Origin: an uncultured candidatus Porisulfidus sp.
GTDB lineage: Bacteria; Pseudomonadota; Gammaproteobacteria; Poriferisulfidales; Poriferisulfidaceae
Assembly: GCA_965204575.1 (NCBI GenBank)
Contig: OZ241993.1
Coordinates: 96,001-160,000 of the forward strand
Length of the DNA stretch: 64,000 nucleotides
Direction of reading: 5' to 3'
Below are positions 1 to 46,919 of this stretch, one piece after another. The position numbers and the translations under genes were made by a program. Under the pieces are notes generated by a model, which had not been told where the DNA came from, did not search any database, and was given only the letters and a program-made list of their open reading frames with translations. Position 1 is the stretch's first letter; each line of letters begins with the position of its first letter.

Positions 1-190
1 CCGCCACGCTGATTACAAGGGCGCCTTGGAGTTCTTCAGTCTGTAGCTCAAACTGGTGGTCAGAAATGATCAGCCTCCAAAATGGTATAGGGTGCCATTA
101 TAACAATTATGCGCTGCTTGTAACAGTCTCAGTCTCAGTTTTGGGCGGGTCGACTCCGGAATTATCTTTGGCGTTATATTGTCCAGAGTG

Positions 191-481
191 CTATATATGT
201 CGTTCTATGTCCATGCGCTGGTGCAAAATACGGACTACCTCCACTGTGTTCCCTTGCATGCGGTAGAAGAGCACGTGTGAACCAACGGTGATCTTGCGGT
301 AACCGGGGCGGATGTCATCGGCCGGTTGACCGACCCGTGAGCCATCGCTTAAAGCCTCGCATGTAGCCTGAATGTTCCGCGTATAACGTTCCGCCTGTAG
401 ATTGCTCCAATGTTTCGCGGTGTAGTGCCAGATATCCTCAACATCGGCTTGAGCCGCTGGAGATAGCGTATAGCTTGACAT
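191..481 (-). CDS. parE: ParE/RelE-family type II toxin
   Basis: YTLSPAAQADVEDIWHYT...W...QAERY...IRPGYRK...SHVLFYR...VVRILHQRMD is the ParE pattern; lies directly downstream of a ParD-like gene. Confidence 0.92.
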   Translation of the reverse strand: MSSYTLSPAAQADVEDIWHYTAKHWSNLQAERYTRNIQATCEALSDGSRVGQPADDIRPGYRKITVGSHVLFYRMQGNTVEVVRILHQRMDIERHI

Positions 482-487
482 GCCCGC

Positions 488-724
488 CTAGGAAGAGGTC
501 TTACCGGCAATGAATGCATCAAAATCAAAGGGAGTTGCAGGACCGGATTGCTCACCTTCGATCAGGGCATTACGTAGGGCCTCGACTTTAGCTTCATGCT
601 CTTCAAGCAATCGCAACCCCGCTCGTAACACCTCGCTGGTCGAACTGTAGCGTCCAGACTCGACTCGATCATCGATGAAGTCCGAGAAGTGCTCGCCGAG
701 AGAAACCGAAGTGTTTTTGATCAT
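488..724 (-). CDS. parD: ParD-family RHH antitoxin
   Basis: MIKNTSVSLGEHF...SGRYSSTSEVLRAGLRLLE...ALIEGEQSG...FDFDAF; start reassigned to the ATG at 724. Confidence 0.9.
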   Translation of the reverse strand: MIKNTSVSLGEHFSDFIDDRVESGRYSSTSEVLRAGLRLLEEHEAKVEALRNALIEGEQSGPATPFDFDAFIAGKTSS

Positions 725-747
725 AAGTGGAACCTCTTGTAGAACTA

Positions 748-762
748 TACCAAAAATTGGTA
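748..762. promoter_or_regulatory. putative ParD operator palindrome TACCAA-N3-TTGGTA
   Basis: perfect 6-bp inverted repeat just upstream of the parD start. Confidence 0.6.
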
Positions 763-1023
763 ATTTTGATAACTGTGACTTTACAAAACTAGAATGCACT
801 AATTGACTTTTTCATTTTCCTCTCCCGTGATGGAAGACACCATGTTGCACAGTATGTACGCAAGTGCCAACGCTTAGTCTCTCGCACAGGTTCGCTGTAT
901 TCCGGCACACGCCTTGCTTTGACGAAGCGTTCCCCGACGTATTCTGGAGGGACCCGGGCCGAGGCTCTCGCGGGGTCGGATCCGGCCGTGGTTGAAGAAG
1001 GTTTCGGGAGACGCCTCGTCGCC

Positions 1024-2436
1024 TCATGGAGGACGGGACGCGAATCTGTTCGCGACCTCTTCGGCTGCGGCGATGCCACTCACCAAGGCGCCATTCACCG
1101 AAGGAATCCGCATGTAATCGCCAGCCAGGGAAAGGTTCTCGATTTTCTGGTGGAGCAGGCGAGGAACTTCTGCCATCGACCTAAACATGCCCGGCGGAGC
1201 CATGCAGACTGCCTCCTTCCAGCGATACACGCGCGTGAACAACCCTTCATGGTCGCCGGGAAGGGAGGAGCCCGGAGGAGGATTTCGACGGGCATCACGG
1301 AGCAACTGGTGCTTGATCTCATCGTCTTCCAGAGGAAACAGTTCTTTGGCGCGTTCGCGACCGACGAGGAGATCCAGTGTGCTCTTGCCCGGAGGCACAC
1401 ATGCGGGAAGGTTGATGGACCGGTCCAGAAGCAACGGCGTTTCGTCTTCGGGGTACAGGGCTCCATTCCAGCCAGGGGGGAGCGGCGGACGATCCAGGCC
1501 CATCACCACCCGGCATCCGCACGAGTATTTCACCGTCTGAAGCACCCGCCGGACTTCCTCCGGCAAGTCGGGGATGAGGCGGGACACTGCCGTGGCAGGG
1601 GTGGCACAGATTACAGCATCCGCCTCGATGATACCGTCGTCCATGACCACGCCAGCCGCAGAACCCCCTTCGACGATGATGCGCCGGACGGGCGACGAGA
1701 CACGAATCATGTCTCCGCAGGCATCGGCCAAAGCGTGAGTCAGGGCGCCGGCACCTTTTTCCGGCACGTAAATCTGGTTTACTTTCAGCATCATTTCCGC
1801 CAGGTAGGTCCGCATGTACGGCGCACAGGCAGTTTCGACATCCCCCATGGTCATCTCCAGAAATCCGGCCACGGTGACCTGAAGAGATTCGGGCACGCCG
1901 ATTCTGTTCAGGAAGTCGCCGAAATTCTCCTCCCCGTCGATTTCGGCTAGCCGGCTGTCGCTGGAGAAACTGTGGCATTTCGGCCGGGTGCCCGAGTGCC
2001 ACATCAACCGAAAGAACGCGGGCGATAAAAACCCTAATTTCCAAGCCGTCGGCAGGCCCCGGACGAAAGAGCCAATGGACCGGGGCGGCCTCGACACCAT
2101 CCACTGCCCATTTCGGTACCAGCCGAGGTTCATGAAGGAACGAATCAGGGGCAGTCCAAGCTCTTCGCACAGATGGAGCGCCGCATCGTAGGAACTGCAG
2201 AAAAAGTCCGCTCCCTCATCTAGGGAAAAACCGTCCACCCTGTCTCCGCCAAGGCGTCCGCCTACGCGTGGGTTGGCTTCCAGCAAAGTGGCATCAATAC
2301 CGTGCTTCTTCAGTGTCCAAGCGGCGGCCAGTCCGGCCCCCCCTCCCCCAACGATTACGACTTTCCTGCTCCCGCGATGCTGCCCCGGCTCTTCTTGGCC
2401 GCGGATTGCAGGACCATTTCCCGTGGGCGACGTCAT
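1024..2436 (-). CDS. FAD-dependent oxidoreductase (flavin amine oxidase/protoporphyrinogen oxidase-like superfamily)
   Basis: VVIVGGGGAGLAAA Rossmann motif, EANPRVGGR, DEGADFF, C-terminal LAGDY; the ATG at 2436 overlaps the MMPL stop (ATGA). Confidence 0.85.
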   Translation of the reverse strand: MTSPTGNGPAIRGQEEPGQHRGSRKVVIVGGGGAGLAAAWTLKKHGIDATLLEANPRVGGRLGGDRVDGFSLDEGADFFCSSYDAALHLCEELGLPLIRSFMNLGWYRNGQWMVSRPPRSIGSFVRGLPTAWKLGFLSPAFFRLMWHSGTRPKCHSFSSDSRLAEIDGEENFGDFLNRIGVPESLQVTVAGFLEMTMGDVETACAPYMRTYLAEMMLKVNQIYVPEKGAGALTHALADACGDMIRVSSPVRRIIVEGGSAAGVVMDDGIIEADAVICATPATAVSRLIPDLPEEVRRVLQTVKYSCGCRVVMGLDRPPLPPGWNGALYPEDETPLLLDRSINLPACVPPGKSTLDLLVGRERAKELFPLEDDEIKHQLLRDARRNPPPGSSLPGDHEGLFTRVYRWKEAVCMAPPGMFRSMAEVPRLLHQKIENLSLAGDYMRIPSVNGALVSGIAAAEEVANRFASRPP

Positions 2437-4721
2437 GATTTCTTTCGGTCCAGGGCCATCAGCAGGGCAGGAAGAAGCAGGAGGTCCGCAATCAGTGCAA
2501 AGATGATCGTGATGGCGACCAAGATGCCAAGCACCCAGTTTGGCTCGTAACCGGATAAAGAGAATATCAGAAACCCAGCCGCCAGGATAGCGGTGGTGAC
2601 CCACAATGCCGGACCCACGGCGCGAAAGGTGGCGCGGATGGCTTCGGGTGACGGCAATCTCTCCCGGCGAGCCTTCAGGTACCGGGCAAGAAAATGAATG
2701 GTATCGTCCACGATGATGCCGATGGCGATTGCGGTCACCACGGAGGCGCCAAGGCCGATGTTGCCGGAAAGATATCCCCACAAACCGAAGGCCATTACCG
2801 CCGGAATAAAATTGGGCACCAGACAGATCAGACCGATACGGATGCTTCGAAAGACCAGGAGCAGAATCAGAGAGATGAGTCCTGTGGCGGTGATGGTGCC
2901 CCACAGCATGCTGCTGATGTTCTCGTCCGACATGTGGGCGGAGATCATGGTGAAGCCGGAGGCCGGCCCTGCGATCTCGGGCGCGTTGGCCTGCAGCCAA
3001 GCCTGGGCGCGCGCATCAATGTCGAGATGATCCTTCGTCGAGGTGTTCTTGAGCACGACGGTCATCCGCGTGGCCGACTTGGCAATATCCATGCGATCGT
3101 TGAGATCGGCGCCAAACGGCAGTGACAATTCGTATAACAGAAGAAATTGGGCGATCAAGTCGGGGTCGTCCGGAATCCGGTAGAACGCCGGGGCGTCCCC
3201 GTGCATGTTCTTGCTCACGCGCTTCACAATGTCTGGAAACGCCTGGACGTGGTGCACTTCGGGCTGGCTGCGGTACCATTCCGCGAAGGACTCGACGGCG
3301 CGCAGGTATCCGGGGTCGACGATGCCGCCTTCCCTCCCGGAATTCAGCGAGTACTCCATCCGGTCGAGCCCGGTCAGATTTTTAACGATGAAATCTGTAT
3401 CGGTGCGGAAGGTGTAGCGGTCGTCGAAGTGGTGCAGCCAGTTGTCGCTGACCTCGCTGCGGGGAATGCCGGTGGCCAGCGCCAAAACCACCAGGGGACC
3501 GGCCCAAAGAAGCAGTTTTCGGCGGGCGGTCACGAAAGCACTCAGGCGTTCGAGGTGGTTTTCCCATCCACCATGCGGGCGGGGGCGGCGCAACGGAAAA
3601 ACGGAAAGCAATGCCGGAAGAAGCGTGACGGAGTAGATGAATGTGAACAACATGCCAAGCGCGACTAGATTGCCGAGGACATGAAACGGCGGTGAACTCG
3701 ATGTGTTCAGACTGAGGAATCCGATTGCGGTAGTGATGGAGGTCAGGAATACCGGATACAGGTTCTCGCGCAGGGATTGCGCCAGTGCCGCATGCCGATC
3801 AAGACCCTGACGCAGGCCAGACAGCGCGATGGTGACAATGTGGATCGCATGGGCCACTCCCACGGCCATGATGATGATCGGCATGCTGGCGCTGACCGGC
3901 GTGAGCCTTGTGCCGAACCAACCCGCGACTCCCACGGTGCTCAGGACGATGAAGGCAATCAGAACCGCGATGGCAAGGGTGGCGTACACCGAACGCAGGA
4001 GGAGGCCCGCGATGGTCAGGATGACAAGGAACACGATCGGGACCAAACCCTCGCCCTCCTTCCCGGCATCGTTGAAGGTTTGGTTGAGGATTACATTGCC
4101 GGTCAGGTAGTAGGAAAGGTCCGGATGGGCGATCCGGGCTTGGTCGAGCAGGTTCCCGAGATGACTCGAAATCTCTGCCCATTGGGGTTCTTCCGGCTCG
4201 GACAGTGCGAAACTGATGATCATCCCGGCCACACGCCCGTCGCCAGAGACCAGTTGCCCGACGATCTCCGGTTCGTTCAAGGCAATGGTCCGGACGCGGT
4301 CCAGTTCCGCATCGCTGAACGATGCCGCGCCGTCCACCAAGGGCGCGACCCTCAGGTCGTCCCCGGTCGCTTCACTATGGAAATAGTTGGTGAGCGAATC
4401 GACCCGGAGCGAGTGCGGGGTCTGCCACGCGGTCTCGGTCAGCTCTTCGATTGCGGCGAGGGTTTCGCGGGTGAACACCGATCCCTCCCGGGGCGTGATG
4501 GCGATCAACGCGGATCTTGATGCGGAATAGGTGTCCTGCAGTTCGTCGAAGGCGAGGAGGTGCGGATTGTCCTTTCCAAACAGTACGCGATAGCTACCGG
4601 AAACCGTGAGTCCGGGCGCTCCCGCCGCCAGCGCCAGCATGACCAGTGCAGCAAGCGCAAGAATCAGCCATCGCTGGCGCAGAATGAAAGTCGGATAGCG
4701 GTCCAGCAGCCTAGCAATCAT
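2433..4721 (-). CDS. MMPL/RND-family inner-membrane lipid transporter
   Basis: two repeats of TM + periplasmic domain + TM bundle; LTSITTAIGFLSL, GIIVDDTIHF; start probably MIARLL at 4721. Confidence 0.9.
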   Translation of the reverse strand: MIARLLDRYPTFILRQRWLILALAALVMLALAAGAPGLTVSGSYRVLFGKDNPHLLAFDELQDTYSASRSALIAITPREGSVFTRETLAAIEELTETAWQTPHSLRVDSLTNYFHSEATGDDLRVAPLVDGAASFSDAELDRVRTIALNEPEIVGQLVSGDGRVAGMIISFALSEPEEPQWAEISSHLGNLLDQARIAHPDLSYYLTGNVILNQTFNDAGKEGEGLVPIVFLVILTIAGLLLRSVYATLAIAVLIAFIVLSTVGVAGWFGTRLTPVSASMPIIIMAVGVAHAIHIVTIALSGLRQGLDRHAALAQSLRENLYPVFLTSITTAIGFLSLNTSSSPPFHVLGNLVALGMLFTFIYSVTLLPALLSVFPLRRPRPHGGWENHLERLSAFVTARRKLLLWAGPLVVLALATGIPRSEVSDNWLHHFDDRYTFRTDTDFIVKNLTGLDRMEYSLNSGREGGIVDPGYLRAVESFAEWYRSQPEVHHVQAFPDIVKRVSKNMHGDAPAFYRIPDDPDLIAQFLLLYELSLPFGADLNDRMDIAKSATRMTVVLKNTSTKDHLDIDARAQAWLQANAPEIAGPASGFTMISAHMSDENISSMLWGTITATGLISLILLLVFRSIRIGLICLVPNFIPAVMAFGLWGYLSGNIGLGASVVTAIAIGIIVDDTIHFLARYLKARRERLPSPEAIRATFRAVGPALWVTTAILAAGFLIFSLSGYEPNWVLGILVAITIIFALIADLLLLPALLMALDRKKS

Positions 4722-5339
4722 CGCTGAATATCCTCGTGGCATAGAGCAACGGATCGTTCCCGGGACTGAACGCAAGCCGCCATTTCCGGGGCAAGCGGTG
4801 AACCCTCTTGCGCCGAGCCGGCACATTGCTGGGTTCCCGCCATCGAATCGGCCTCGTTAATTTTCGTGCCTGACATTCGGCACCAAGCCGCGAAAGCGAT
4901 GGACATCATCACCGCAGATTCAGGACCAAGGCGCATCGCACTCTCACTGCCAAGATTATACTGCCCCAATCAGGCTTGTCGTGCTGCTCTGCCGTGCACA
5001 GAAAGACTGAAAGCCGTCTATGGGGACACGCATTCTTGTAGTGGGAGTTGAATCAGTTGTGTTTCATCTCATCTTACCAACAAACATCATTTTGCATTAT
5101 CCAAATTACCGCTCATGCAGTTGGGGCCTGACCAGTTGGCACTCTTTTTCCTATCAACCTCTCTGGCTTGGAAATCAGGGCATGCGTAAATTCTGCGCAA
5201 GTTCATGTGCATGCATGCATAGGTTCATAAACATTGCTGTGCTAGAATTTCGGTGCCCAGTTCCTTGACGAAATCATTCGGAGGAATCGACAGTGTCAGG
5301 GACGGGCGTGCCGCAAACGAGCCTACCTGCCTTTGTTGA

Positions 5340-5352
5340 CCCCCCCCCCCCC
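5340..5352 (+). repeat. C13 homopolymer directly following TTGA in the divergent promoter region
   Basis: ttgttgaccccccccccccctcaaatt. Confidence 0.85.
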
Positions 5353-5579
5353 TCAAATTGCATTCACTATAAGGAAACAGCCTTTCCAAGGGCTTGGTTG
5401 CCCTTCAGGTCGATTTTCCTTCACATTCTGAACTTACGCAGTCGAGCGGCCGGGAAACCCTCTCGCGACGAAGGGACCTTCGCTACAATCATGCCGAGGG
5501 CGAGACCGGACAGTAAAATAAATACAACTCACCCAGCATCGGAAATGCCATTCTCCAATTTCAAGGTTCGCGAAGTTTC

Positions 5580-6743
5580 ATGAGTATTTCAATGCCTTCC
5601 GCATATGTCGCCCAGTATGCTTCAGCCCAGAAGCATAACAAGGTGGAAGTTGATAATTACATCAGGCATACGACCATAGGCGACCCCGAGTTGGACCCGA
5701 TAATGGAAGAGTTGACTGCCTCAGTATCGCCTGAGGACTTGCATCAATTCATCAAGGCCGGCATAGAAGGCGAGAAGGACGGCCTGCACAAGGCGCCACA
5801 AGCCCTGCGTGATTTTTTCGACAAAATCGAGATTCCTCCCCCTTGGCTTGATTACGACGCTTTTCACTCCGGGGTCCGCAGTTTCAACGTCAATGTGGAT
5901 CTTATGCTTGCCGCATTCGTTGCCGGGGTTCTAGTGGAAGGCTTTGCAACATTAATCGCCAAATCTTTCAACATCACGGGTCGAGTGGCCACCACCACAA
6001 GGCGCCTGCAACAAAACAACCGCCACCTGATGGAAATTTTCTTCCCCGATGGCTTGCAGAGGGACAACGATGGATGGAAACTGTCGGTTCGAATTCGTTT
6101 CATCCATGCCCGCGTCAGATGCCTGTTGGCTCATTCCGAACAGTGGGATCACGAAGCATGGGGCACGCCATTGAGCGCCGCGAACCTGGGTTTTGCCATC
6201 TCCGTCTTTTCCAAGCGCCTACTGGATTATGCGGCACTAGTCGGCGCGAAATTTACCGAGGAGGAAAAAACAAGTGTGATCGACGTGTGGAGATACACCG
6301 GCTACCTGATGGGTATCCCCGAGACCATTCTCTACCGCAACCGGGATGAGGCGGAAGCCATCTACCAGATCGCCCACCTGTGCGAACCCCCCCCGGATGC
6401 CGACTCGGTTCACATGGCAAACACCTTGATTCAGTCCATCCCCGAAGTCGCGGGAATAGAAAAGCCGTCCGAACGGGAAAAAACCACCGTCTTAGCTTAC
6501 CGGATTTCACGCGCACTTATCGGCAACAAGCTCGCGGATTCGTTCGAATATCCAAAATCTTCCACCACGGGGACATTGTTCGCCTTCAGGCTGAAGCAGC
6601 ACCTCCAGAGAGGGCTTCGAGGTTCGCAGTTGATCAGGCTCAACAACTTCACCCAACTTCTGCAGATTTCAATGTACGATAGAGGGGGAGTGAGCTACCG
6701 GATGCCCGACCATGTCCTTCAGTCAAAATCGCACGACTGGTGA
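5580..6743 (+). CDS. oxygenase MpaB/Lcp family protein (DUF2236)
   Basis: GDPELDP, PPWLDY, RRLQQN, VRIRFIHARVR heme-His motif, WDHEAWGTPLS, WRYTGYLMGIPE. Confidence 0.85.
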   Translation: MSISMPSAYVAQYASAQKHNKVEVDNYIRHTTIGDPELDPIMEELTASVSPEDLHQFIKAGIEGEKDGLHKAPQALRDFFDKIEIPPPWLDYDAFHSGVRSFNVNVDLMLAAFVAGVLVEGFATLIAKSFNITGRVATTTRRLQQNNRHLMEIFFPDGLQRDNDGWKLSVRIRFIHARVRCLLAHSEQWDHEAWGTPLSAANLGFAISVFSKRLLDYAALVGAKFTEEEKTSVIDVWRYTGYLMGIPETILYRNRDEAEAIYQIAHLCEPPPDADSVHMANTLIQSIPEVAGIEKPSEREKTTVLAYRISRALIGNKLADSFEYPKSSTTGTLFAFRLKQHLQRGLRGSQLIRLNNFTQLLQISMYDRGGVSYRMPDHVLQSKSHDW

Positions 6744-6875
6744 GGGTTCTCCACGCCTCACCCCCATCCCCCGCCCCCACTCAGTCACACAGAACACGTC
6801 AAGGCGGTAAAATCCCTCTCCAGCCACCCGGTTATTACTTTTCGAGCGTGCAACGCCATCAGCCCCCACCTTCTC

Positions 6876-7703
6876 ATGAAAACGATTGACCACTGCCTCG
6901 GGCGACGTGTATTTTCCCTGCCGCTCGCGTTTTGCATGAGCCTCCTGCTCGGCTGGAGTCTCTCAATACCCGCCCATGCGGAATCCGCCGAAGAAAAAGG
7001 GCTGAGAATTGCGCGTGATGCCGATGCGAGGGACCACGGCTTCGGCAACTACACTGCCCAGCAAACCATGGTGCTGCGCAACAAGCATGGGCAAGAAAGC
7101 CGCCGGAAACTTCGGGCGAAGGTTCTGGAAGTGCCGGAAGACGGCGACAAGAGCCTGTTTGTCTTCGACAATCCGCGAGATGTCCAGGGAACCGCTTTTC
7201 TGGTTCATTCCCACAAAAAGGGCTCCGACGACCAGTGGCTCTATCTGCCCGCCCTGAAGCGAGTCAAGCGCATCAGTTCGTCAAATCGCTCCGGCTCCTT
7301 CATGGGAAGCGAATTCGCCTACGAAGACATGACCGCCCAAGACGTCGACAAATTCACCTACCAGTATCTTCGCGATGAACCTTGCGGCGACCTGACATGC
7401 TTCGTGGTGGAACGCGTCCCCACCGACAAGGACTCGGGCTATCGGCGGCAGCTGGTTTGGTTCGACCAGGACGAATTACGTGCCCAGCAGATACATTTCT
7501 ATGACCGAAAAGACACGCATATGAAGACGCTTACCTTTGAAGAATACGCTCAGTATCTGGACAAGTTCTGGCGCTCCGGCCTGATGACGATGGTCAATCA
7601 CGTCACCGGGAAAAGCACGACCATGATGTGGAAAGATTTTCAGTTCCAAACCAAGCTGAGCGATCGCGATTTTACCAAGACAGGATTGAAACGAGTGCGT
7701 TGA
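6876..7703 (+). CDS. outer-membrane lipoprotein-sorting (LolA-like) periplasmic protein
   Basis: signal peptide; F..PRDVQGTAFL, DDQWLYLPALKRVKRISS, SFMGSEFAYED. Confidence 0.88.
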   Translation: MKTIDHCLGRRVFSLPLAFCMSLLLGWSLSIPAHAESAEEKGLRIARDADARDHGFGNYTAQQTMVLRNKHGQESRRKLRAKVLEVPEDGDKSLFVFDNPRDVQGTAFLVHSHKKGSDDQWLYLPALKRVKRISSSNRSGSFMGSEFAYEDMTAQDVDKFTYQYLRDEPCGDLTCFVVERVPTDKDSGYRRQLVWFDQDELRAQQIHFYDRKDTHMKTLTFEEYAQYLDKFWRSGLMTMVNHVTGKSTTMMWKDFQFQTKLSDRDFTKTGLKRVR

Positions 7704-8962
7704 TGCTGCGCCGCAACGTGCTTTCCCACATCGCGCCTGTTGCGGTTCTGATTTCAGGTATCGTCCTCGGTAGCGGAGTCCGCGCGGAATCCGATATTTA
7801 TTTTGATTTTTCGGGGAAAATCAGCATCGAAAACCGATGGTTCCCGCAAACGAACCTCTATAAAGATCAATCCCGCCATGCAACCGGGTTCGTTTTCGAA
7901 CCCGAATTTTATCTCGAAGGCGCCGAGGGCTGGAGTTTCACCCTGGTCCCCTTCTTTCGCTACGACAGCGCCGATTCACGCCGTACCCACGGCGACCTCC
8001 GGGAAGCCTATTTTCTGTTGTTCGGCGAACTCGGGGAAGACGAGTGGGAGTTGCGCGTCGGCATCGACCGGATATTTTGGGGTGTCATCGAATCGAATCA
8101 TCTGGTCGACATCATCAATCAAGTCGATGTCATCGAGCACCCCGATCAAGAAGTCGAATTGGGGCAGTTGATGGCGCATCTCACCTTGTCGGGGGAGTGG
8201 GGGATCGCAGAGTTGTTCATCCTGCCGCACCACCGGGAGCGCACGTTCCCCGGTCGTGACGGTCGCCTGCGCAGCGGGCTGATCGTGGACGAAGACCACC
8301 CGACTTATGAGAGTTCGGCCGAACAATGGCATACGGACTTCGCACTTCGGTACAGCCATAACTTCGGGCCCTTTGATGTCGGCATCAGCGTGTTCGACGG
8401 CACCAGCCGGGAAGCGCTTCTGCTGCCACGCCTTGGACCGGATGGCACGATAGAGGGGTTGGTTCCGCACTATGAGCAGATCCGCCAATTTGGCCTGGAT
8501 GCGCAAATGACGTTGGAAGACTGGATATGGAAACTGGAAGCCATTCATCGGTCCGGCGCGCAAAACCTCAGTTACGAGGAAGATGACTATGCCGCGCTCG
8601 TCATGGGAGCGGAATACACGTTTTACTCCATATTCGACTCTCCCGCGGACTTCAGCCTAGTCTGGGAATGGAATTACGACGAACGCGGAGAGGATGCGGC
8701 CACCATATTCGACGATGATCTGTTTTTTGCGATCCGCTACGCCCTCAATGACATTCAGGATACGACTTTCTTCTTCAGCATGATGCAAGACAGGGAACAC
8801 GCGACAAATGTTCTTTTCCTTGAATTTAATCGGAGACTGACCGATCAATGGTCGATGGTTGCGGAAGGATTTCATCTGCTCAATTCGGATGAAAAAGATG
8901 TGCAAGCCCATCCGATACGCCGCGACAGCTTTCTGGAGCTGCGGCTAAACTATAATTTTTGA
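7703..8962 (+). CDS. outer-membrane beta-barrel protein associated with MMPL/LolA-like systems
   Basis: signal peptide, DLREAY, RIFWGVIESNHLVDIINQ, terminal LRLNYNF beta-signal; the ATG overlaps the upstream TGA. Confidence 0.75.
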   Translation: MLRRNVLSHIAPVAVLISGIVLGSGVRAESDIYFDFSGKISIENRWFPQTNLYKDQSRHATGFVFEPEFYLEGAEGWSFTLVPFFRYDSADSRRTHGDLREAYFLLFGELGEDEWELRVGIDRIFWGVIESNHLVDIINQVDVIEHPDQEVELGQLMAHLTLSGEWGIAELFILPHHRERTFPGRDGRLRSGLIVDEDHPTYESSAEQWHTDFALRYSHNFGPFDVGISVFDGTSREALLLPRLGPDGTIEGLVPHYEQIRQFGLDAQMTLEDWIWKLEAIHRSGAQNLSYEEDDYAALVMGAEYTFYSIFDSPADFSLVWEWNYDERGEDAATIFDDDLFFAIRYALNDIQDTTFFFSMMQDREHATNVLFLEFNRRLTDQWSMVAEGFHLLNSDEKDVQAHPIRRDSFLELRLNYNF

Positions 8963-8996
8963 TCCCCCTCCCCGAAACCCGTTCCAACGTTCCAAA

Positions 8997-9875
8997 GTGA
9001 CTCTGGCTACAGAACTTGCCCCATTGCGACAACGGATCATCGATCGGTTGGAGGAGGTCCTGCCGGGACCTGAAGTCGCGCCCGAGCATCTGCATGCAGC
9101 CATGCGGCATGGGGCGCTGGTCCCGGGCAAGTGCGTGCGGGGATGCCTTGTTTATGCTTCCGGACGGGCTTTAGGAATAGAAGTCGAGCGTCTCGACCGT
9201 TTTGCCTGTGCCCTGGAACTGGTTCATGCCTACTCTTTGGTGCACGACGACCTGCCGTGCATGGACGACGACGATATCCGGCGGGGGCGCCCCTCCTGCC
9301 ACGCAGCGTATGGTGAAGCAACGGCCCTGCTGGCGGGCAACGCCCTGCTGCTGTGTGCCATTGCCGAAGTGTCAGGCGACAGGGAATCGTCAGGAGAACA
9401 GCGCAGTGCGAGTATCGACCGGTTGTGCCAGGCGGCGGGTTCGTTCGGCATGATGGGAGGCCAGCAGCTGGATATCGAGTTGGAAGACGCTGAAGAGTGC
9501 CAAATCGACTTGCTTAATGAAGTGTATCGGCTCAAGACCGGGTGCCTGTTCCATGCCTCGGTCATGCTGCCGACGGAACTGGTGCAGGCCAGCCCAGGGC
9601 AAAGAGACGCGCTGGACACGTATGCGAGAAAAATTGGCCTGGCCTTTCAAGTGCGCGACGATCTCGAGGATATGGAGCAGGATGCCCAGCTTGCCGGCGA
9701 CGGGACGCGCCCGACTTATCCGGTCCTTCTCGGCGTCGAGGCAAGCCGCGAGAAGCTCTCCGGTCTCGGTGCGGAGGCGCTGGCGGCACTCGACATGTTC
9801 GGAGACCGCGCCGACTTGCTGCGTTCGCTTGGGCGATGGCTGACCTCAGGCTCTGCGGATGAACAGTTGGATTAA
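8997..9875 (+). CDS. ispA: farnesyl diphosphate synthase (polyprenyl synthetase)
   Basis: HAYSLVHDDLPCMDDDDIRRG first aspartate-rich motif, GGQQLD, KTG, LAFQVRDDLED. Confidence 0.88.
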   Translation: MTLATELAPLRQRIIDRLEEVLPGPEVAPEHLHAAMRHGALVPGKCVRGCLVYASGRALGIEVERLDRFACALELVHAYSLVHDDLPCMDDDDIRRGRPSCHAAYGEATALLAGNALLLCAIAEVSGDRESSGEQRSASIDRLCQAAGSFGMMGGQQLDIELEDAEECQIDLLNEVYRLKTGCLFHASVMLPTELVQASPGQRDALDTYARKIGLAFQVRDDLEDMEQDAQLAGDGTRPTYPVLLGVEASREKLSGLGAEALAALDMFGDRADLLRSLGRWLTSGSADEQLD

Positions 9876-11345
9876 GATGAGGTTTCACGGATTTGTTTGG
9901 AATCCGTGCTAGAGTAAATCATCATGCACCGAGCCTCCCGCTACCGTCTGTATCCGAACCAGACGCATGAGCGGCAGTTCACTCGGCTGTGCGGGGCCGG
10001 CCGATTCGTCTACAACGAATTGCTGGCCAGCCAAATCCAAGAGTACAAGCGTTTCGAGGCCGGCGAGAGAGAAAGGCCGGGCACCTCCGAGTTTGACTTC
10101 GGAAGGCGGTATGCACGCCTGAAAGCACAGGAAGGTCACGAGTGGCTGCGGGAGCTGTCAGCCGTGGTCGTGCGCGGCACGGGGGCTTTCCCGCTGGGGT
10201 CGGCGTTCGCGCATTTCTCCCGTCGGATCCGGGAGAGCAAGTGCGGCAAGCAGGCCGGATTCCCCCGCTTCAAGGTCAAGGGCAAGAGCCGGGAGTCGTT
10301 TACGATCCCGGAGGACGTGAAGATCCGGAGCAAGCGGCTTTGGGTACCGAAGGTGGGCTGGATCCGGATGAACCGCAAGGCGCAATCGCGCACGCAGGGA
10401 GCCGACCCTTGGGACAGCGGCGAAGCCAAGACCGCGGTGGTGTACCGGGAGCTGGACAAATGGTACGTGTCGGTGCTGTGGGAGGTGCCAGACCCGGACT
10501 GGCGTTGGCACGGCGGGGTCTGCGGGATCGACCGCAACTCGGAGAACATCGCAGGGGCCTGGAGCGGCGGGCGGAGGCTGATCGAGATTCCGTATGAGCG
10601 AATCGGGAAGTACGAGGCGCGGGCCCGACACTACCAGTGGCGGGCGAGCCACCGGGAGCGGACCGAACTGAAGGATTCTGACGGAGAACCGGTGCGCACG
10701 AAGTCGGGCAAGAAGATCAAGGTGGCCTCGAACCGACGCCAGCGCTTGCAGTTGCGTGCGGCGAAGGCGAAGCGCAAGGCGGCGGAGATCCGCAAGGACT
10801 TCAGCCACCAGGCCTCGGCCGACCTGGCTCGGAACTTCCAGCACCTCGTGCTGGAGGACCTGGACGTGCAGGCGATGCGGCGCTCGGTGCGGGGGACGAA
10901 GGAAAAGCCAGGGCGGCGCGTGAAGGCGAAGACGGCGCTGAACCGGAAGATGGTGCAGTTCTCTTGCATGGGAATGGTGGACCGCTTTCTCCAGTACAAG
11001 GCGGCAGATCTCATCCGGGTGCCGGCGCGGAACACCAGCCAGGCCTGCGCGGAGTGCGGGCACACCGAACAAGGCAACCGGAAGGAGCAGGCGCACTTCA
11101 AGTGCCTGGCCTGCGGGCACACGGACAATGCGGACATCAATGCCGCACGAAACATCCTGGACCTGGGATTGAACAGGCTCCTGGCCGGAGGCGCTCCGGT
11201 GACGGGACGGGGAGGGGACAACGAAGCGGGGGCATTCTTCTATGAGTGCCTAGTGGACACCGCCGATGATCCGTCAACGATGCAGTGGAACTACCGGGGC
11301 TCGCCCCCCGACTTCCACACAGAATCGTGAAGCGCCGTTAAGATG
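9872..11345 (+). mobile_element. non-autonomous tnpB element with 8-bp flanking direct repeat TTAAGATG and imperfect terminal inverted repeats
   Basis: TTAAGATG at 9872-9879 and 11338-11345; 9884-9902 matches the reverse complement of 11313-11331 at 15/19; no transposase gene inside. Confidence 0.7.
9924..11330 (+). CDS. tnpB: RNA-guided endonuclease TnpB
   Basis: YRLYP N-terminus, FPRFK, RuvC motifs GID / LEDL / NADINAARNI all intact, Zn finger CAECG...CLACG. Confidence 0.95.
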   Translation: MHRASRYRLYPNQTHERQFTRLCGAGRFVYNELLASQIQEYKRFEAGERERPGTSEFDFGRRYARLKAQEGHEWLRELSAVVVRGTGAFPLGSAFAHFSRRIRESKCGKQAGFPRFKVKGKSRESFTIPEDVKIRSKRLWVPKVGWIRMNRKAQSRTQGADPWDSGEAKTAVVYRELDKWYVSVLWEVPDPDWRWHGGVCGIDRNSENIAGAWSGGRRLIEIPYERIGKYEARARHYQWRASHRERTELKDSDGEPVRTKSGKKIKVASNRRQRLQLRAAKAKRKAAEIRKDFSHQASADLARNFQHLVLEDLDVQAMRRSVRGTKEKPGRRVKAKTALNRKMVQFSCMGMVDRFLQYKAADLIRVPARNTSQACAECGHTEQGNRKEQAHFKCLACGHTDNADINAARNILDLGLNRLLAGGAPVTGRGGDNEAGAFFYECLVDTADDPSTMQWNYRGSPPDFHTES

Positions 11346-11390
11346 CCGTAAACCGGACGACGGTACACAACGAGCGGGGTTCTGGTTCAC

Positions 11391-12464
11391 ATGCCTACTT
11401 CAATCTCGAAGAGTCTGCAAGACTGTGACAGCGACCTCGCCTATCAGGACGCTATTTTGCAAGGTGTTTCCCGCACCTTTGCTCTCACGATCCCCCGGCT
11501 TCCCGATGCATTGCGCGACGTGGTGGGCAATGCCTATCTCCTGTGCCGGATTACAGACACCATCGAAGATGAACCAAGCCTGCCCTCGGAACAAAAACAA
11601 ATATTCTCGGAGCGCTTCATCGATGTCGTCGCCGGCCGTGAAAGCGTAGAACCCTTCGCACGGGAACTCGGTTCCTCGCTGTCCGCATCGACCACCGAGG
11701 ACGAACATGATCTGATCGCCAATACCGACCGGGTTATCCGGATTACTCATGGATTCCGCCCCAACCAGCGGAAGATCCTTGAGCGTTGCGTGGAAACCAT
11801 GGCGCGGGGAATGTCCGAATTCCAGCGGAACGCAACTTCCGACGGCCTGGAAGACCTGTCCCACCTTGATCGCTATTGCTACTATGTCGCCGGGGTCGTC
11901 GGCGAGATGCTGACGGAACTCTTTTGTGACTACTCCGCAGAGATAAATGAACGGCGCGAGGAGCTTCTCGCGTTGTCGGTCTCGTTCGGGCAAGGGTTGC
12001 AGATGACGAACATCCTCAAGGACATGTGGGAAGACCGACGCCGTGGAGCCTGTTGGTTGCCGCGTGATGTCTTCCAGGCCGCGGGGTACGATTTGAGTGC
12101 CATGTCCGCTGGGGAAACCAATCCCGCTTTCGCCAAGGGATTGTCCGAACTCGTGGCGGTCGCCCGCTGCCACCTGGAAAACGCACTCCGGTTCATTACC
12201 CTTATCCCTCGCCACGAAACCGGCATTCGCCTGCACTGCCTGTGGGCATTGGGAATGGCCGTTCTGACCCTGCGCCGCATTCATGCAACCCCCGCTTTCC
12301 ATAGCGGGCAGGAGGTGAAAATCTCGCGCCGCAGCGTGCGCGCCGTTGTCGCCGTCACCAACGCATCGGTCCGCTCCAACCTGGCTTTGAAGGCACTCTT
12401 CGGGGCACTGGCCTCCAGGCTTCCGCGCAGTCAGGTGGACTGCCTCCCGCAAGCGCAACCGTGA
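11391..12464 (+). CDS. squalene/phytoene synthase family, single-enzyme squalene synthase type
   Basis: [54 protein letters not shown]. Confidence 0.85.
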
Positions 12465-12529
12465 CGAGCTGCCGCGTTTGGTACAAATCTGGCACAATGT
12501 AACTCTGAAAGCGGGGACTCACCACAAAC

Positions 12530-13495
12530 ATGATGAAGGTAATCCTGGCTCAACCACGCGGTTTTTGTGCCGGTGTTGATCGCGCCATCACCATCGTTGA
12601 GAAGGCGCTGGAGCTTCATGCCTCTCCCATTTACGTGCGGCATGAAATTGTCCATAACCGTAGGGTTGTAGAGAATCTGGAGGCGAAAGGCGTCGAGTTC
12701 GTGGACGAAATCGAACAAATCCCGGATGAGGCGGTAGCCGTGTTCAGTGCCCATGGCGTGTCGCAGAAAGTGGAGCAGGATGCCTCGCGGCGGAACCTTC
12801 GATCCATCGACGCCACGTGCCCTCTGGTTTCGAAAGTTCACAAGGAAGGGCAGCGTTATGCTGCGCAAGGCTACGACATCATCCTGATCGGACATGAAAA
12901 CCACCCCGAGGTGGAGGGCACTCTCGGTCGGATCTCGGGACCCGTTTTCTTGGTCAGCACCGTAGAGGATGTCGAAACTCTTGAAGTGCAAAACCCGGAG
13001 AAAGTCGCCTATATCACCCAAACCACTTTGTCGGTCGACGATACGCGGGAGATCATCGAGGCATTGCGCAAACGTTTCCCGGATATTGCCGGGCCGGACG
13101 TCAAGGACATTTGCTACGCCACCCAGAATCGCCAGGCCGCCGTGCGTGCACTTGCCGAGCAGGTGGATCTGATTCTCGTGGTCGGGGCGAAGAACAGTTC
13201 CAATTCCAATCGCTTGTGCGAAGTTGCGTCCGACATCGGGGTCTCCAGTTACCTGATCGAAGATCCCTCGATGATTGATCCTGAATGGCTGCGCGGGAAA
13301 GAGGCGGTCGGGATTACCGCCGGGGCCTCGACCCCCGAGGAGTTGGTGCAAGACGTCATTGAAACGTTGCGGAAACACGCCGAACTGGAAGTCTCCACAA
13401 TGGACGGAATCGAGGAAAACGTACGTTTCCCTCTCCCCCCTTCTTTACATCAGGCAGCCAAGAGAAAAGCAGGTTCGACCGGGAAAGTGACATAA
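12530..13495 (+). CDS. ispH: 4-hydroxy-3-methylbut-2-enyl diphosphate reductase
   Basis: [35 protein letters not shown]. Confidence 0.97.
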
Positions 13496-13602
13496 GGCGG
13501 CAAATACGCCGGCCGGATTTCCCAATATTCCTTCCCCGAATTTTTTATCGGCTTCATGCCGGGCGGGCATTTCATTTTCGGCCTGCGCGGGAGGAATGCC
13601 GG

Positions 13603-14418
13603 TCACCGCTGACATCGCCGGCAGTAAAAACTTGAGCGTTGCCCGATTACCCGGCTGCGCACCGGCTCCCCGCACCGGGGGCATGCCTCGCCGGCCCGCC
13701 CGTATACCTGGAGTTCCTGTGCAAAATAGCCCGGTTCCCCTTCCGCCTTCGTAAAATCCCTCAACGTCGTCCCGCCCGCTTTTATCGCCTGAGTCAGGAC
13801 CGCCCTTGCGGCCTCGGCCAGCCGTCGGTAGCGATTCAGGCCAACCCGTCCGGCAGCGCGAACCGGCGAGATTCCTGCTTCGAACAATGCCTCGCTGGCA
13901 TAGATGTTGCCCAGACCCACCACGATTTTCGAATCCATCAGGAAGTTCTTGACGGCACCGGAACGTCCCCGCGACCGGGCATACAGCCATTCCCCGCTGA
14001 ATTCTTCTCCCAGGGGTTCCGGGCCGAGGTTCCTCAGCAATCGATGCCGCAGCGGATCGGCACGGGTCCAATGCAGGCTGCCAAACCGCCGCGGATCCCG
14101 GAATCGCAACGTGGCGCCCTTCTTCAGGCAGACATCGACATGGTCGTGCGTGCCCGGCGGAGGAGGATTCTTGAGGACCCGAAACGAGCCCGACATTCCC
14201 AAGTGCCAGATCAGGTGTCCGTCGTCCAGTTCAATCAACAAATACTTGGCCCGGCGATCGACTGCATGGACACGCTGGTTTGTTGCCACGCCCGGAAGCG
14301 TCCGACTGATCGGCCAGCGTAACTGCCGTTGCCGGATGACCATCCGGTCGATGACTTCTCCAACCAGGTGCGGCGCAATTCCGCGGCGCACCGTTTCGAC
14401 TTCCGGCAGTTCCGGCAT
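13603..14418 (-). CDS. mutM: formamidopyrimidine-DNA glycosylase
   Basis: MPELPEVE, HLGMSG, GNIYASE, C-terminal Zn finger. Confidence 0.97.
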   Translation of the reverse strand: MPELPEVETVRRGIAPHLVGEVIDRMVIRQRQLRWPISRTLPGVATNQRVHAVDRRAKYLLIELDDGHLIWHLGMSGSFRVLKNPPPPGTHDHVDVCLKKGATLRFRDPRRFGSLHWTRADPLRHRLLRNLGPEPLGEEFSGEWLYARSRGRSGAVKNFLMDSKIVVGLGNIYASEALFEAGISPVRAAGRVGLNRYRRLAEAARAVLTQAIKAGGTTLRDFTKAEGEPGYFAQELQVYGRAGEACPRCGEPVRSRVIGQRSSFYCRRCQR

Positions 14419-15110
14419 CAGCAGCCCACCGGGATCGTCGCGAAGGTGGCCATCAAGTGGCGGGCCTGCTTCTCATTGAGCCATTGTTCGTGCCGGGTCT
14501 GCCAGACCGGCACCTCGCCAAGACGGCTTTCGAGGACGGGGAGATTCCCGAAATCCCCGGTACCCGGTCTTATTTGGTTGAGAATGACGCCCGCCAGCTG
14601 GCAGTGCGACTTCTGCACCGCTTCGCAGGTCAACAGAACCTGATTGATCGCACCCAGCCGATCCTCGGCCACGACCAGGACCGGCAATCCCAGCTCCGAA
14701 GCGAGCGCCTGGACGTCCCCGTCCTCTGCCAAGGGCGTCCTCCATCCCCCTGCCCCCTCGACGACCAGCAGCCCTTCCCGGCGGCAGAAGTCGACCAGGT
14801 CCTGCAACCGATATTCCACCCCCTCCTGCCGTGCCGCCAGCATCGGCGCAATCGGGGTGCGCAACTTGTAACGCACCACCGGCTCCGTCTTCGCCAATCG
14901 CGCTGCCTCGCGCAGAGCCTCTGCATCCTGCGCCCGCAATTCCTCGCCGGAAGCCCCATCGATTGCCACGCACCCGGATTCCACGGGCTTCAGGGGGCGA
15001 ACCTCCGGCACCTGCCCGTGCAAATCCCGGATCAAATGGGCCGCAGCCCATGTTTTCCCCACCCCGGTATCGGTTCCCGTCACGAAAATACCGCGCAAAT
15101 CGGAACACAT
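14418..15110 (-). CDS. bioD: dethiobiotin synthetase
   Basis: FVTGTDTGVGKT, KPVESG, VEGAGG, LGAIN; start estimated at 15110. Confidence 0.93.
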   Translation of the reverse strand: MCSDLRGIFVTGTDTGVGKTWAAAHLIRDLHGQVPEVRPLKPVESGCVAIDGASGEELRAQDAEALREAARLAKTEPVVRYKLRTPIAPMLAARQEGVEYRLQDLVDFCRREGLLVVEGAGGWRTPLAEDGDVQALASELGLPVLVVAEDRLGAINQVLLTCEAVQKSHCQLAGVILNQIRPGTGDFGNLPVLESRLGEVPVWQTRHEQWLNEKQARHLMATFATIPVGC

Positions 15111-15162
15111 CACATATAATTCAAGTTTGACCTGAAGGTCGATCAATTTTACGCCTGTCTTC

Positions 15163-16398
15163 ATGAACGAGCCGGATTCCATGTTCTCCCCCCGCCGAAA
15201 ATCCGTTGCAGTACGGATTGGCTCGGTCACGCTCGGTGCCGGCCATCCCATTGCCGTGCAATCCATGACCGACACTCCCACCGCCGATGTCGCCGCGACG
15301 GTGGCGCAAGTCGAGGCCTTGACGCGTGCGGGCTCCGAACTGGTCCGGTTGACGGTCAATGACCGTGACGCGGCGGCGGCCGTCCCCCAGGTTCGCGAAC
15401 AACTGGACAAGCGTGGGGTTGCCGTCCCCCTGATCGGGGATTTCCACTACAACGGGCACAAGCTCCTGGCAGAATTCCCGGAATGCGCTGAAACCCTGGA
15501 CAAGTACCGCGTAAATCCAGGAAATGTCGGGCGCGGCAGTTCGCGCGACCCGCACTTCACGCAATTCATCGAACTCGCCTGCCGCCATCAGAAACCCGTG
15601 CGGATCGGCGTCAATTGGGGAAGCCTTGATGCAGCATTGCTGACCGAGCTGATGGACGAGAATGCCAAGCTCGATTCCCCTCTGGATGCCGAAGCGGTCC
15701 AGCGCGAGGCGATGGTTCAGTCGGCATTGCGAAGCGCTGCCCGAGCCGAGGAGATCGGCCTGCCGCACGACGCGATCGTGCTGTCCTGCAAGATGAGCCG
15801 GGTCCCCTTGGTGGTCCAGGTGTACACCGAGCTCGCCCAGCGCTGCGACTATCCGTTGCATCTGGGATTGACCGAAGCCGGCATGGGCACTCGCGCGGTC
15901 GTCTCGACCAGCGCGGCACTGGCCCTGCTCCTGCAGCGCGGAATCGGGGACACGCTGCGGGTATCGCTGACGCCGGAACCGGGCGGAGAGAGAACCGCAG
16001 AAGTCCGAGTCGCCTGCGACCTGCTGCAGAGCATGAACCTGCGCCACTTCATGCCGGCCGTGACGGCCTGCCCCGGCTGCGGCCGGACCAGCAGCGACTA
16101 TTTCCAGCGGTTGGCTCAAGACATCGAACGCTACATCGCCAAGCAGATGCCCGTGTGGAAGAAACAGTACCCGGGGGTCGAGAACCTGAACGTGGCGGTG
16201 ATGGGCTGTGTCGTCAACGGTCCAGGCGAAAGCCGCCATGCCGACATCGGAATCAGTCTGCCCGGCTCCAATGAGAACCCCAGTGCGCCCGTTTACATCG
16301 ACGGCGAACGGGTCTGCACCCTGAGCGGAGAGCGCATCGCGGAAGAATTCCAGGAAATGCTTCTGGACTACGTGGAAAAGAGATACGCGTCCGTATAA
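15163..16398 (+). CDS. ispG: (E)-4-hydroxy-3-methylbut-2-enyl-diphosphate synthase
   Basis: [39 protein letters not shown]. Confidence 0.97.
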
Positions 16399-16432
16399 TC
16401 TTGGAAACTGAGCACATACCGCTTGCCCTTTC

Positions 16433-16969
16433 ATGAGCGTCCGAACTTTCGAGGACCACGCGCCCCGCATCGCCAATTCTGCCTACGTGGATGAACACGC
16501 GCTGGTCATCGGCGACGTGCACCTGGGCGAGGACAGCTCGGTCTGGCCGATGTCGGTCGTTCGCGGCGACGTCAACTCGATCCGAATCGGAGCGCGGACC
16601 AACATCCAGGATGGCAGCGTCGTGCATGTCACGCATGACTGCGAATATTCCCCGGGCGGCTATGCCGTCACCATTGGAGACGACGTGACGGTGGGCCACC
16701 GGGTCATCGCCCACGCCTGTGAAATCGGTGATCGCTGCCTGATCGGGATGGGCTCCATAATCCTGGATGGCGCCGTCATCGAGCCCGACAGCATGATCGG
16801 CGCCGGTTGCCTGGTGCCTCCCGGGAAACGCCTTGAAGGCGGCTGCCTCTGGATTGGCAGCCCGGCCCGGAAGCTTCGCGAACTGAGTCCCGAAGAACTT
16901 GAATTCCTGCGATATTCCGCGGCTCACTACGTCGACAACAAGAACCGTCACAAAGCTGAATGCTCCTGA
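16433..16969 (+). CDS. gamma carbonic anhydrase-like protein (YrdA family)
   Basis: hexapeptide repeats, RGDVNSIRIG.RTNIQD, VTVGH...LIGMGS. Confidence 0.9.
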   Translation: MSVRTFEDHAPRIANSAYVDEHALVIGDVHLGEDSSVWPMSVVRGDVNSIRIGARTNIQDGSVVHVTHDCEYSPGGYAVTIGDDVTVGHRVIAHACEIGDRCLIGMGSIILDGAVIEPDSMIGAGCLVPPGKRLEGGCLWIGSPARKLRELSPEELEFLRYSAAHYVDNKNRHKAECS

Positions 16970-16982
16970 AAGGACCTGAAAC

Positions 16983-22285: not shown

Positions 22286-22322
22286 GGCGGGGAAATCCGG
22301 CTTCCCTCATTATAATGAGGCG

Positions 22323-46803: not shown

Positions 46804-46836
46804 CCTGTCACGGCCTTCGGGCCAAGCGCAAGTGGA

Positions 46837-46867: not shown

Positions 46868-46919
46868 AGCAGAAAAGCCGAACTTTTGAACTTTAGAACA
46901 CTCTTATAGAATACCGATT

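Follow-up and report, generated by a model that had tools for sequence, protein, structure and literature searches.

A 64,000-nucleotide stretch of the genome of an uncultured candidatus Porisulfidus sp. (contig OZ241993.1, positions 96,001 to 160,000; hereafter the window) carries near its left end a set of genes whose core we recognize, from gene neighborhoods, as a putative mobile four-gene cassette: an MpaB-family oxygenase, which acts as the anchor gene, an MMPL/HAE3 pump, a LolA-like carrier, and a DUF1302-like barrel. Both here and in many of the related loci that we surveyed, the cassette adjoins genes for the synthesis of squalene, and the link between squalene, oxygenase, and transporters is well supported by this shared context. 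We put at roughly 0.55 the probability that the cassette oxygenates or cleaves the squalene made next door and relays the product outward via the pump, carrier, and barrel.

Relatives of the oxygenase number in the thousands. One genome per species was scanned, and of the 613 stretches that matched, 587 were confirmed as relatives; the survey took the best 80 of these at least 587 loci by MpaB match, each fetched with up to 10 kb per side. Their MpaB proteins are 61 to 92% identical to that of the window and come from 10 named phyla, with three genomes supplying two loci each. The phylum spread cannot be an effect of mis-binning, as 53 of the loci sit on contigs of more than 1 Mb; because 11 run into contig ends, the counts are lower bounds. 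With presence scored by TBLASTN (E <= 1e-8, at least half of the query covered, within 10 kb of MpaB), the MMPL pump is found in 67 of the 80 loci, the LolA-like carrier in 63, the DUF1302-like outer-membrane protein in 58, and all three together in 57, most commonly in the order MpaB>MMPL>LolA>barrel on one strand. In some genomes, the oxygenase or the pump-carrier pair occurs twice (L062/L073, L063/L065, L023/L025, L074). The cassette is absent from the plasmid collection, in which the best MpaB matches are at most 33% identical; the LolA-like matches there (44 to 52% identical) belong to MMPL and carrier pairs in other contexts. One such pair, without MpaB, lies on a 24-kb Pseudoalteromonas plasmid (L081) beside gamma-mobile-trio recombinase genes, and another, likewise without MpaB, on a Sulfitobacter dubius plasmid (L082) directly after a type I polyketide synthase (PKS), a placement that makes the pair look like a general lipid-export accessory.

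Squalene is made by bacteria either with one enzyme, squalene synthase (SQS), or in three steps by HpnC, HpnD, and HpnE. The single SQS accompanies the cassette in 19 of the 80 loci and HpnC, HpnD, or HpnE in 11; together they account for 30 loci, in 27 of which the squalene gene lies within 1.5 kb of a core gene. Representative Hpn genes exceed the curated NCBIfam cut-offs (HpnE 397 bits against 283, HpnD 305 against 278.6, HpnC 259 against 250). Squalene genes occur beside the cassette in nine of the ten named phyla, Nitrospirota being the exception, and in many orders and orientations; the recurrence of two non-homologous routes beside the same cassette points to squalene itself as the common denominator. 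In the tightest arrangements, SQS separates the carrier gene from the barrel gene, all on one strand (L041), or the whole set HpnC>HpnD>HpnE>MpaB>MMPL>LolA>barrel runs in one direction (L044); in L007 and L033, MpaB adjoins squalene genes with no transporter nearby. Genes supplying the precursors are also frequent: IspH is present in 35 loci, DXS in 10, and any isoprenoid gene in 41. The IspH copies form two groups, one SQS-linked and one HpnCDE-linked, each extending across several phyla; IspH thus appears to travel with the squalene genes, its type following the squalene route. At least 17 changes are required to account for squalene adjacency along the MpaB tree (the shuffled mean is 27.9 for a three-state version), and although 26 of the 76 branches of this partly resolved tree are unresolved, which inflates the change counts, this argues that the adjacency is not a single inherited accident. 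Lineage-specific neighbors such as aconitase and Na/H exchangers are confined to one phylum each, and the neighbor clusters of the 80 loci contain no other metabolic function with a comparable recurrence across phyla.

A first-pass annotation of this DNA had proposed one locus that makes, modifies, and moves an acyclic terpenoid. The association of the transport genes with SQS, on which that proposal turned, does recur in other genomes, as the counts of full transport sets (57/80) and of squalene genes (30/80) attest. Not all of its members can be retained, however: IspA is confined to the close relatives of the window and one other locus (5/80), the flavin oxidoreductase is an optional extra (5/80 at >=50% identity), and the pump arm has a different origin, described below.

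Lcp and the fungal MpaB and MpaB' are enzymes that cut isoprenoid C=C bonds, and the oxygenase of the window shares their domain, PF09995, which spans residues 108-337 and is its single Pfam domain. Its family profile matches the rubber oxygenase Lcp K30 (PDB 5o1l) at E 1e-6 and ~30 bits, with His198, Arg195, Arg202, and Arg164 of Lcp aligned to H176, R173, R180, and R142, respectively. These four residues are invariant or nearly so in the family alignments and are kept down to 24% identity; in Lcp, His198 is the proximal heme ligand, and Arg164, Arg195, and Arg202 are structural or active-site residues (PMC5522427). The protein lacks a signal peptide. An identification with Lcp at the level of orthology was discarded, as its distal Lys167 and Thr168 and channel-base Glu148 are replaced and the secretion signal is missing. 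The protein is best described as a putative cytoplasmic heme oxygenase, for which the genomic context suggests squalene as the substrate.

The three transport proteins are predicted to span the envelope. The pump carries PF03176 in two stretches, together with Sterol-sensing and Patched matches, which identify it as an MMPL protein, and its ~11 hydrophobic segments (at 19-37, 249-420, and 602-748) follow the two-block topology of the RND type. Its best NCBIfam model is the HAE3 subfamily (145 bits, below the cut-off of 352), whereas it falls far short of the HpnN models (TIGR03480, 110 bits against 752; NF052374, 57.5 against 1100) and of BstA (22 bits against 1400); among solved proteins it is closest to HpnN and MmpL4/5, with low scores (30 bits for HpnN in PDB). 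The carrier, whose DUF1329 score compares with a cut-off of 23.1 bits, belongs to the LolA superfamily, matches PDB 3bk5 at E 1e-85, and has an N-terminal hydrophobic segment. The barrel of the window is a weak match to DUF1302 (17.3 bits against a cut-off of 23.2, E 0.003), and 24 of 27 aligned relatives match this family at E <= 0.01 (best 9e-8), while two match Porin_4. With its signal peptide and C-terminal ...YNF, it is best described as a short member of, or neighbor to, DUF1302 and as a putative beta-barrel; a profile search of PDB found no solved relative by sequence.

Among the isoprenoid enzymes, the SQS protein has both Asp-rich motifs of SQS_PSY (DTIED at residue 56, DMWED at 211). 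It scores below the cut-off of TIGR01559 (squal_synth, 121 bits against 287), and this is still its best model, ahead of HpnD, HpnC, and CrtB; its best solved relatives are eukaryote-type squalene synthases. Its predicted product is squalene, which is supported by the replacement of SQS by HpnCDE in other loci. The IspA-like protein scores 243 bits against the FPPsyn cut-off of 275; of its motifs DDLPCMD and DDLED, the former has an aromatic residue five positions upstream. The oxidoreductase, which lacks a signal peptide, belongs to a separate, well-conserved family, in which it has >100 relatives that are 60-70% identical. It was considered as a candidate HpnE and rejected (81 bits against 283 for the HpnE model, 25% identity to true HpnE). 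Homologues 60-67% identical to it lie between pump and carrier in L012, L006, L010, L046, and L068, giving the order pump>FAD oxidoreductase>carrier, and the pumps of these five loci form one clade. L006 has a second oxidoreductase, 38% identical, after the carrier.

Comparison of the window by BLASTN with the four closest loci (L001-L004) distinguishes the inherited backbone from two intrusions. Window 5592-9879 and 11338-17541 are collinear with L002 at ~93% identity. The TnpB element between these segments is flanked by an 8-bp direct repeat (9872-9879, 11338-11345), is absent in L002-L004, and is outside the pathway; the empty site in L002 leaves 48 bp from the ispA stop to the SQS ATG, so the ~49 bp estimated in the first-pass annotation for the interval without the element holds. 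The TnpB protein is present in three copies on the same 1.8-Mb contig, and in the closest named relative a 90% identical 3' part of the element sits at a contig end (L001 1-397), immediately before MpaB. This suggests that the element is active in the lineage and breaks assemblies.

The second intrusion concerns the divergent arm. Window 3-108 matches L002 just upstream of its pump gene, which is oriented like the oxygenase, and window 109-5591, comprising ParDE, oxidoreductase, pump, and intergenic region, has no collinear match in L002-L004; the divergent intergenic region is likewise not conserved in L001-L004. The pump genes of the window and L002 are in opposite orientation and share only 68% DNA and 58% protein identity, and in the pump tree (FastTree) the window pump stands by itself on a long branch, apart from the clade that its relatives form, a position subject to a long-branch warning. 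At the same time, pump and oxidoreductase together can be aligned over their full length, at ~67% DNA identity, with loci from Nitrospirales and Opitutia in which the order is pump>oxidoreductase>carrier, and several near-identical assemblies carry this block as well (clusters of 8 and 11 members at 90% identity). Taken together, the missing collinearity, the divergent pump sequence, and the end-to-end foreign alignment mark the arm as a foreign block of two genes that, together with ParDE, took the place of the pump native to the lineage. An inverted copy of the lineage's own gene was considered and rejected, given 68% DNA identity against 93% in the flanks and the separate long branch. The divergent MMPL-oxidoreductase arm is thus not a native part of the locus. 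ParDE occupies the left, outer edge of the foreign segment, with which it may have arrived, and is not part of the pathway. That the own pump was lost and yet a foreign one gained would point to selection for a pump in this lineage, consistent with the function proposed for the cassette.

A regulatory set also adjoins the cassette. In L002 (850-7260) and 24 other loci, it includes a response-regulator-PP2C phosphatase, an RsbW-like kinase, STAS proteins, a HAMP histidine kinase, and a periplasmic binding protein; partner-switching regulators (STAS, RsbW-like kinase, PP2C phosphatase) are found in 25 of the 80 loci, a histidine kinase in 13, and a periplasmic binding protein in 17. The first 108 bases of the window match a spot beside the STAS genes of L002, so the copy of this set in the present genome probably lies just left of the window.

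The cassette shows signs of horizontal spread. The MpaB tree mixes phyla, with 18 label changes against a minimum of nine and several well-supported sister groups that cross phyla, and the pump tree behaves similarly (16 against a minimum of eight). Cassette proteins are ~50-70% identical across ten phyla, and in combination with the phylum-mixed gene trees this identity shows that the cassette has been exchanged as an adaptive unit. Transposases and integrases are frequent near the loci. In the window, the GC content of third codon positions (GC3) is 0.64-0.69 for the cassette, squalene, and IspH genes (5580-13495) and 0.75-0.81 for housekeeping genes; IspH, at 0.65, looks acquired, whereas IspG, at 0.77, is housekeeping-like. 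The cassette may be common to bacteria of one kind of habitat. Record titles name a sponge (L001) and Poriferihabitaceae (L017), and both Porisulfidus and Poriferihabitaceae appear in sponge metagenome abstracts, summaries that fall short of establishing a sponge association of the carriers.

In the mechanism we propose, IspH, joined by IspG or DXS in some genomes, would raise the supply of C5 units, from which IspA would make farnesyl diphosphate and SQS, or elsewhere HpnC/D/E, would make squalene in the inner membrane. The cytoplasmic heme enzyme would then oxygenate or cleave the squalene, and in some genomes the flavin oxidoreductase would further modify the product. The proton-driven pump would lift the lipid from the inner membrane and hand it over to the LolA-like carrier, which would deliver it to the outer-membrane protein for insertion or release. 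We infer squalene as the substrate of the oxygenase, the type of reaction, the contacts among pump, carrier, and barrel, and the outward direction.

Several observations weigh against this proposal. There is no squalene gene within 10 kb in 50 of the 80 loci, including all 11 from Nitrospirota (0/11), and in 12 of the 80 MpaB occurs without any of the three transport genes. The survey covers only the closest 80 of at least 587 loci, and MpaB relatives of 46-49% identity lie outside it; taxon labels are the submitters' titles. In the oxygenase, Lys167, Thr168, and Glu148 of Lcp align with Gln145, Asn146, and Ser129 (in a weak alignment of ~30 bits), so the pocket differs and its chemistry may differ from C=C cleavage. 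Finally, the role of the DUF1302/DUF1329/RND sets of Pseudomonas is debated, with export of an envelope component, esterase activity, and uptake all under discussion (bioRxiv 2020.07.04.188060, PMC10866462).

These points leave room for other explanations. The cassette could move squalene in unaltered form, or a hopanoid synthesized by genes elsewhere in the genome, to the outer membrane for membrane homeostasis, with the MpaB-like protein as a heme-based gas or redox sensor or regulator. This we regard as unlikely, even though the nearest solved relative of the pump is the hopanoid transporter HpnN, the distal catalytic residues of Lcp are not conserved, partner-switching regulators adjoin the cassette in the 25 loci mentioned, and the globin fold of Lcp resembles that of globin-coupled sensors (PMC5522427). 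The sensor part is opposed by an MpaB protein that has no output domain, is usually encoded first in the transport operon, and pairs with squalene genes without transporters (L007, L033). Against the hopanoid part, a search of the 64-kb window (open reading frames, ORFs, of >=100 amino acids; beyond 13.4 kb, NCBIfam at E <= 1e-10) and of the recurrent neighbors found no squalene-hopene cyclase, and the locus does not classify as a hopanoid (hpn) biosynthesis locus, which is marked by a cyclase and hpn tailoring genes. Import and degradation of host or environmental terpenoids or sterols, in which the oxygenase would open the isoprenoid chain for catabolism, appears to us quite improbable. The import that the first-pass annotation had kept as its alternative is weakened by recurrent neighbors that are biosynthetic (SQS, HpnCDE, IspH, DXS), with no beta-oxidation or catabolic genes among the recurrent clusters, and by an oxygenase without an export signal where Lcp is extracellular. 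A few record titles do hint at sponge-associated bacteria, Lcp-type enzymes initiate rubber catabolism (PMC5522427), and mutants of the Pseudomonas DUF1302/DUF1329/RND genes grow poorly on Tween 20 and fatty esters (bioRxiv 2020.07.04.188060, PMC10866462); the RND/MMPL pumps that have been studied, however, act outward (PMC6394551, PMC10942540).

It is more doubtful still that the product is a pigment-like C30 polyene, generated by CrtN-like flavin desaturation and trimming by the heme enzyme and then placed in the outer membrane by the MMPL and LolA-like proteins. Placement of this kind by an MMPL and LolA-like pair has been proposed for aryl-polyene clusters, such pairs accompany other lipid biosynthesis genes, for example the type I PKS, and the N terminus of the oxidoreductase weakly matches the CrtI/CrtD and HpnE models. 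Yet the oxidoreductase is found in only five of the 80 loci, all carotenoid desaturase models score far below their cut-offs, and no other carotenoid genes are present among the recurrent neighbors. We give the least credence to adjacency without function, according to which the squalene genes and the cassette merely share mobile islands. Transposases and integrases near the loci, ParDE and TnpB in the window, and the low GC3 of the cassette relative to housekeeping genes would all fit such islands; they would leave unexplained why two non-homologous squalene routes recur in many orders and orientations in nine phyla, why SQS lies inside the operon in L041, and why no other metabolic function recurs across phyla likewise. 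Conversion of squalene followed by outward transport thus remains the reading that we prefer.

The cassette can be compared with several characterized systems, of which AmeABCD, HpnN, and BstABC come closest. AmeABCD of Castellaniella defragrans similarly combines an HAE3 RND pump with a LolA-superfamily (DUF1329) periplasmic protein, and has a DUF1302 outer-membrane protein to which the DUF1302-like barrel here may correspond. It adjoins genes of terpene metabolism and has a proposed role in transporting a hydrophobic terpene through the envelope. It differs in having a fourth, periplasmic protein, AmeC (COG4447/BNR-like), in the sizes of AmeA (605 amino acids) and AmeB (451) against 419 for the barrel and 275 for the carrier here, and in its setting, a monoterpene degradation island that confers tolerance, in contrast to the squalene-making neighbors and operon-leading heme oxygenase of the cassette (PMC6394551). 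No AmeC-like family was detected by Pfam or NCBIfam among the window genes at 1-17 kb, or among the recurrent neighbor clusters. HpnN of Rhodopseudomonas and Burkholderia is also an MMPL/HAE3 pump for a squalene-derived lipid and is encoded near squalene and hopanoid genes, but it is a remote match to the window pump, a cyclase was not found here in the window or recurrent neighbors, and it works without dedicated periplasmic or outer-membrane partners (PMC6394551). BstABC of Methylococcus capsulatus follows the same plan: next to genes that make and tailor triterpenoids, it comprises an inner-membrane protein of the MMPL family, a binding protein in the periplasm, and a protein associated with the outer membrane. 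Unlike the cassette, it uses a phosphonate-binding-type periplasmic protein (BstB) and a BstC of another family, and its substrates are C-4 methyl sterols from a cyclase route, with BstABC and HpnN moving sterols and hopanoids, respectively (PMC10942540). With Lcp K30 and the fungal MpaB/MpaB', the oxygenase shares PF09995 and, of the residues of Lcp, the proximal heme His and the three Arg; it is set apart from Lcp by the replaced residues, by the lack of the signal that directs Lcp to secretion, and by its partner genes. The Pseudomonas co-fitness set PP_0765, PP_0766, PP_2018, and PP_2019 likewise unites an outer-membrane barrel with a LolA-like protein and an RND pump that act in concert, and published AlphaFold co-folds suggest barrel-carrier and carrier-pump complexes; this set, however, is divided between two loci, includes a BNR protein, has a fatty-ester growth phenotype, and is without a squalene or heme-oxygenase link (bioRxiv 2020.07.04.188060, PMC10866462). 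Outside subscription-only papers, we found no description that joins MpaB/DUF2236 with squalene and MMPL/LolA, in agreement with the first-pass annotation, to which no described pathway with this combination was known.

The layout of the locus is given in Table 1. Genes were identified from the ORF list, Pfam, and NCBIfam. All nine genes initially named are present, as are the leftward ATGA-coupled MMPL-oxidoreductase pair that diverges from the rightward run, the pump stop overlapping the oxidoreductase start at 2433-2436, and the 34-bp gap from the barrel stop (8962) to the GTG start of ispA (8997). Signal peptides occur on the carrier and barrel alone, which places the oxygenase, oxidoreductase, and synthases in the cytoplasm.

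Table 1. Features of the left part of the window, with strand and the evidence for each assignment
Feature	Coordinates	Strand	Evidence
ParE	191-481	-	Pfam PF05016
ParD	488-799	-	Pfam PF03693
FAD amine-oxidase-family oxidoreductase, 470 amino acids	1024-2436	-	PF01593, 155 bits
MMPL/HAE3-type RND pump, inner membrane, 762 amino acids	2433-4721 (ORF open to 4826)	-	PF03176, 138 bits
Divergent intergenic region	4722-5579	.	between pump arm and oxygenase
MpaB/Lcp-family (DUF2236) putative heme oxygenase, 387 amino acids	5580-6743	+	PF09995, 75.9 bits (cut-off 23)
Periplasmic LolA-like carrier, 275 amino acids, signal peptide	6876-7703	+	PF17131, 210 bits; DUF1329, 36.9 bits
DUF1302-like outer-membrane protein, putative beta-barrel, 419 amino acids	7703-8962 (ORF from 7628)	+	relatives' DUF1302 matches, signal peptide
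Farnesyl diphosphate synthase, IspA-like	8997-9875	+	best NCBIfam model FPPsyn
TnpB-only mobile element	9880-11337 (tnpB ORF 9924-11330)	+	NCBIfam guided_TnpB, 185 bits
Single-enzyme squalene synthase (SQS), 357 amino acids	11391-12464	+	PF00494 (SQS_PSY), 197 bits
IspH, last enzyme of the methylerythritol phosphate (MEP) pathway	12530-13495	+	NCBIfam, 488 bits (cut-off 420)
IspG, penultimate MEP enzyme	15163-16398	+	NCBIfam, 452 bits (cut-off 345)

For the pump, the start at 4721 is more likely than that at 4826, and the exact 762-residue protein occurs in a public collection. The ATG at 7703, which shares one base with the stop of the LolA-like gene in a TGATG junction, is the more likely start of the barrel. 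IspG lies 1.7 kb past IspH. The longest ORF in that region, on the opposite strand to IspG (15121-16476, minus), has no match in Pfam or NCBIfam and is a shadow ORF in GC-rich DNA; in some loci, simple ORF picking likewise called frames antisense to SQS and the carrier. The two small ORFs of the divergent intergenic region have no family match in Pfam or NCBIfam, and a run of 13 C (5340-5352) in this region, which lies ~230 bp before the oxygenase gene begins, may be prone to slippage or reflect an artefact of assembly. A promoter-like site for the pump arm lies at 4982-4955 (minus strand) and a terminator-like site after IspH at 13556-13570, from scans too weak for delimiting transcription units: promoters are not above the shuffled expectation (5 sites against 4.0), and terminators number 22 against 12.9 expected. 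Rfam gave no family in window 1-17 kb, and a repeat search of 1-14 kb returned short chance-like matches only.

The remainder of the window consists of housekeeping genes. A NAD-epimerase ORF at 22230-23213, 30% identical to a gene near MpaB in Paracoccaceae loci, was dropped as a relative of the cassette. Two other regions were observed: 45448-49490 encodes the methanethiol oxidase MtoX (747 bits against 650), followed by an unassigned ORF, a MauG/MbnH-like di-heme enzyme, and a thiol-disulfide oxidoreductase, and 52820-54570 encodes an MNIO-family maturase of bufferin-type ribosomally synthesized and post-translationally modified peptides (324 bits against 310) with an adjoining HvfC-like partner.

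The movement of triterpenoids from the inner to the outer membrane of bacteria is poorly understood, and to our knowledge only HpnN and the Bst proteins have been studied. The cassette bears on the question of how bacteria use squalene when no cyclase gene is nearby, and it offers a compact, testable system in which one enzyme of unfamiliar chemistry and three transport parts are tied by context to one precursor. Even a 1.8-Mb genome retains it and has acquired a pump gene for it anew. Should the oxygenase cleave or oxygenate squalene, the chemistry of the Lcp/MpaB family would be wider than known, and the enzyme could be a source of defined isoprenoid aldehydes or ketones. A more speculative extension, which we consider rather unlikely, is that unrelated phyla living inside marine invertebrates such as sponges share the cassette and use it to turn squalene into an oxygenated or shortened lipid for the bacterial surface or the host. 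If true, this lipid could be a signal for recognition, have a protective role, or supply a precursor for the triterpenoids of the host; it would represent a new class of squalene-derived exported lipid and provide the first physiological role for a bacterial cytoplasmic MpaB-type heme oxygenase.

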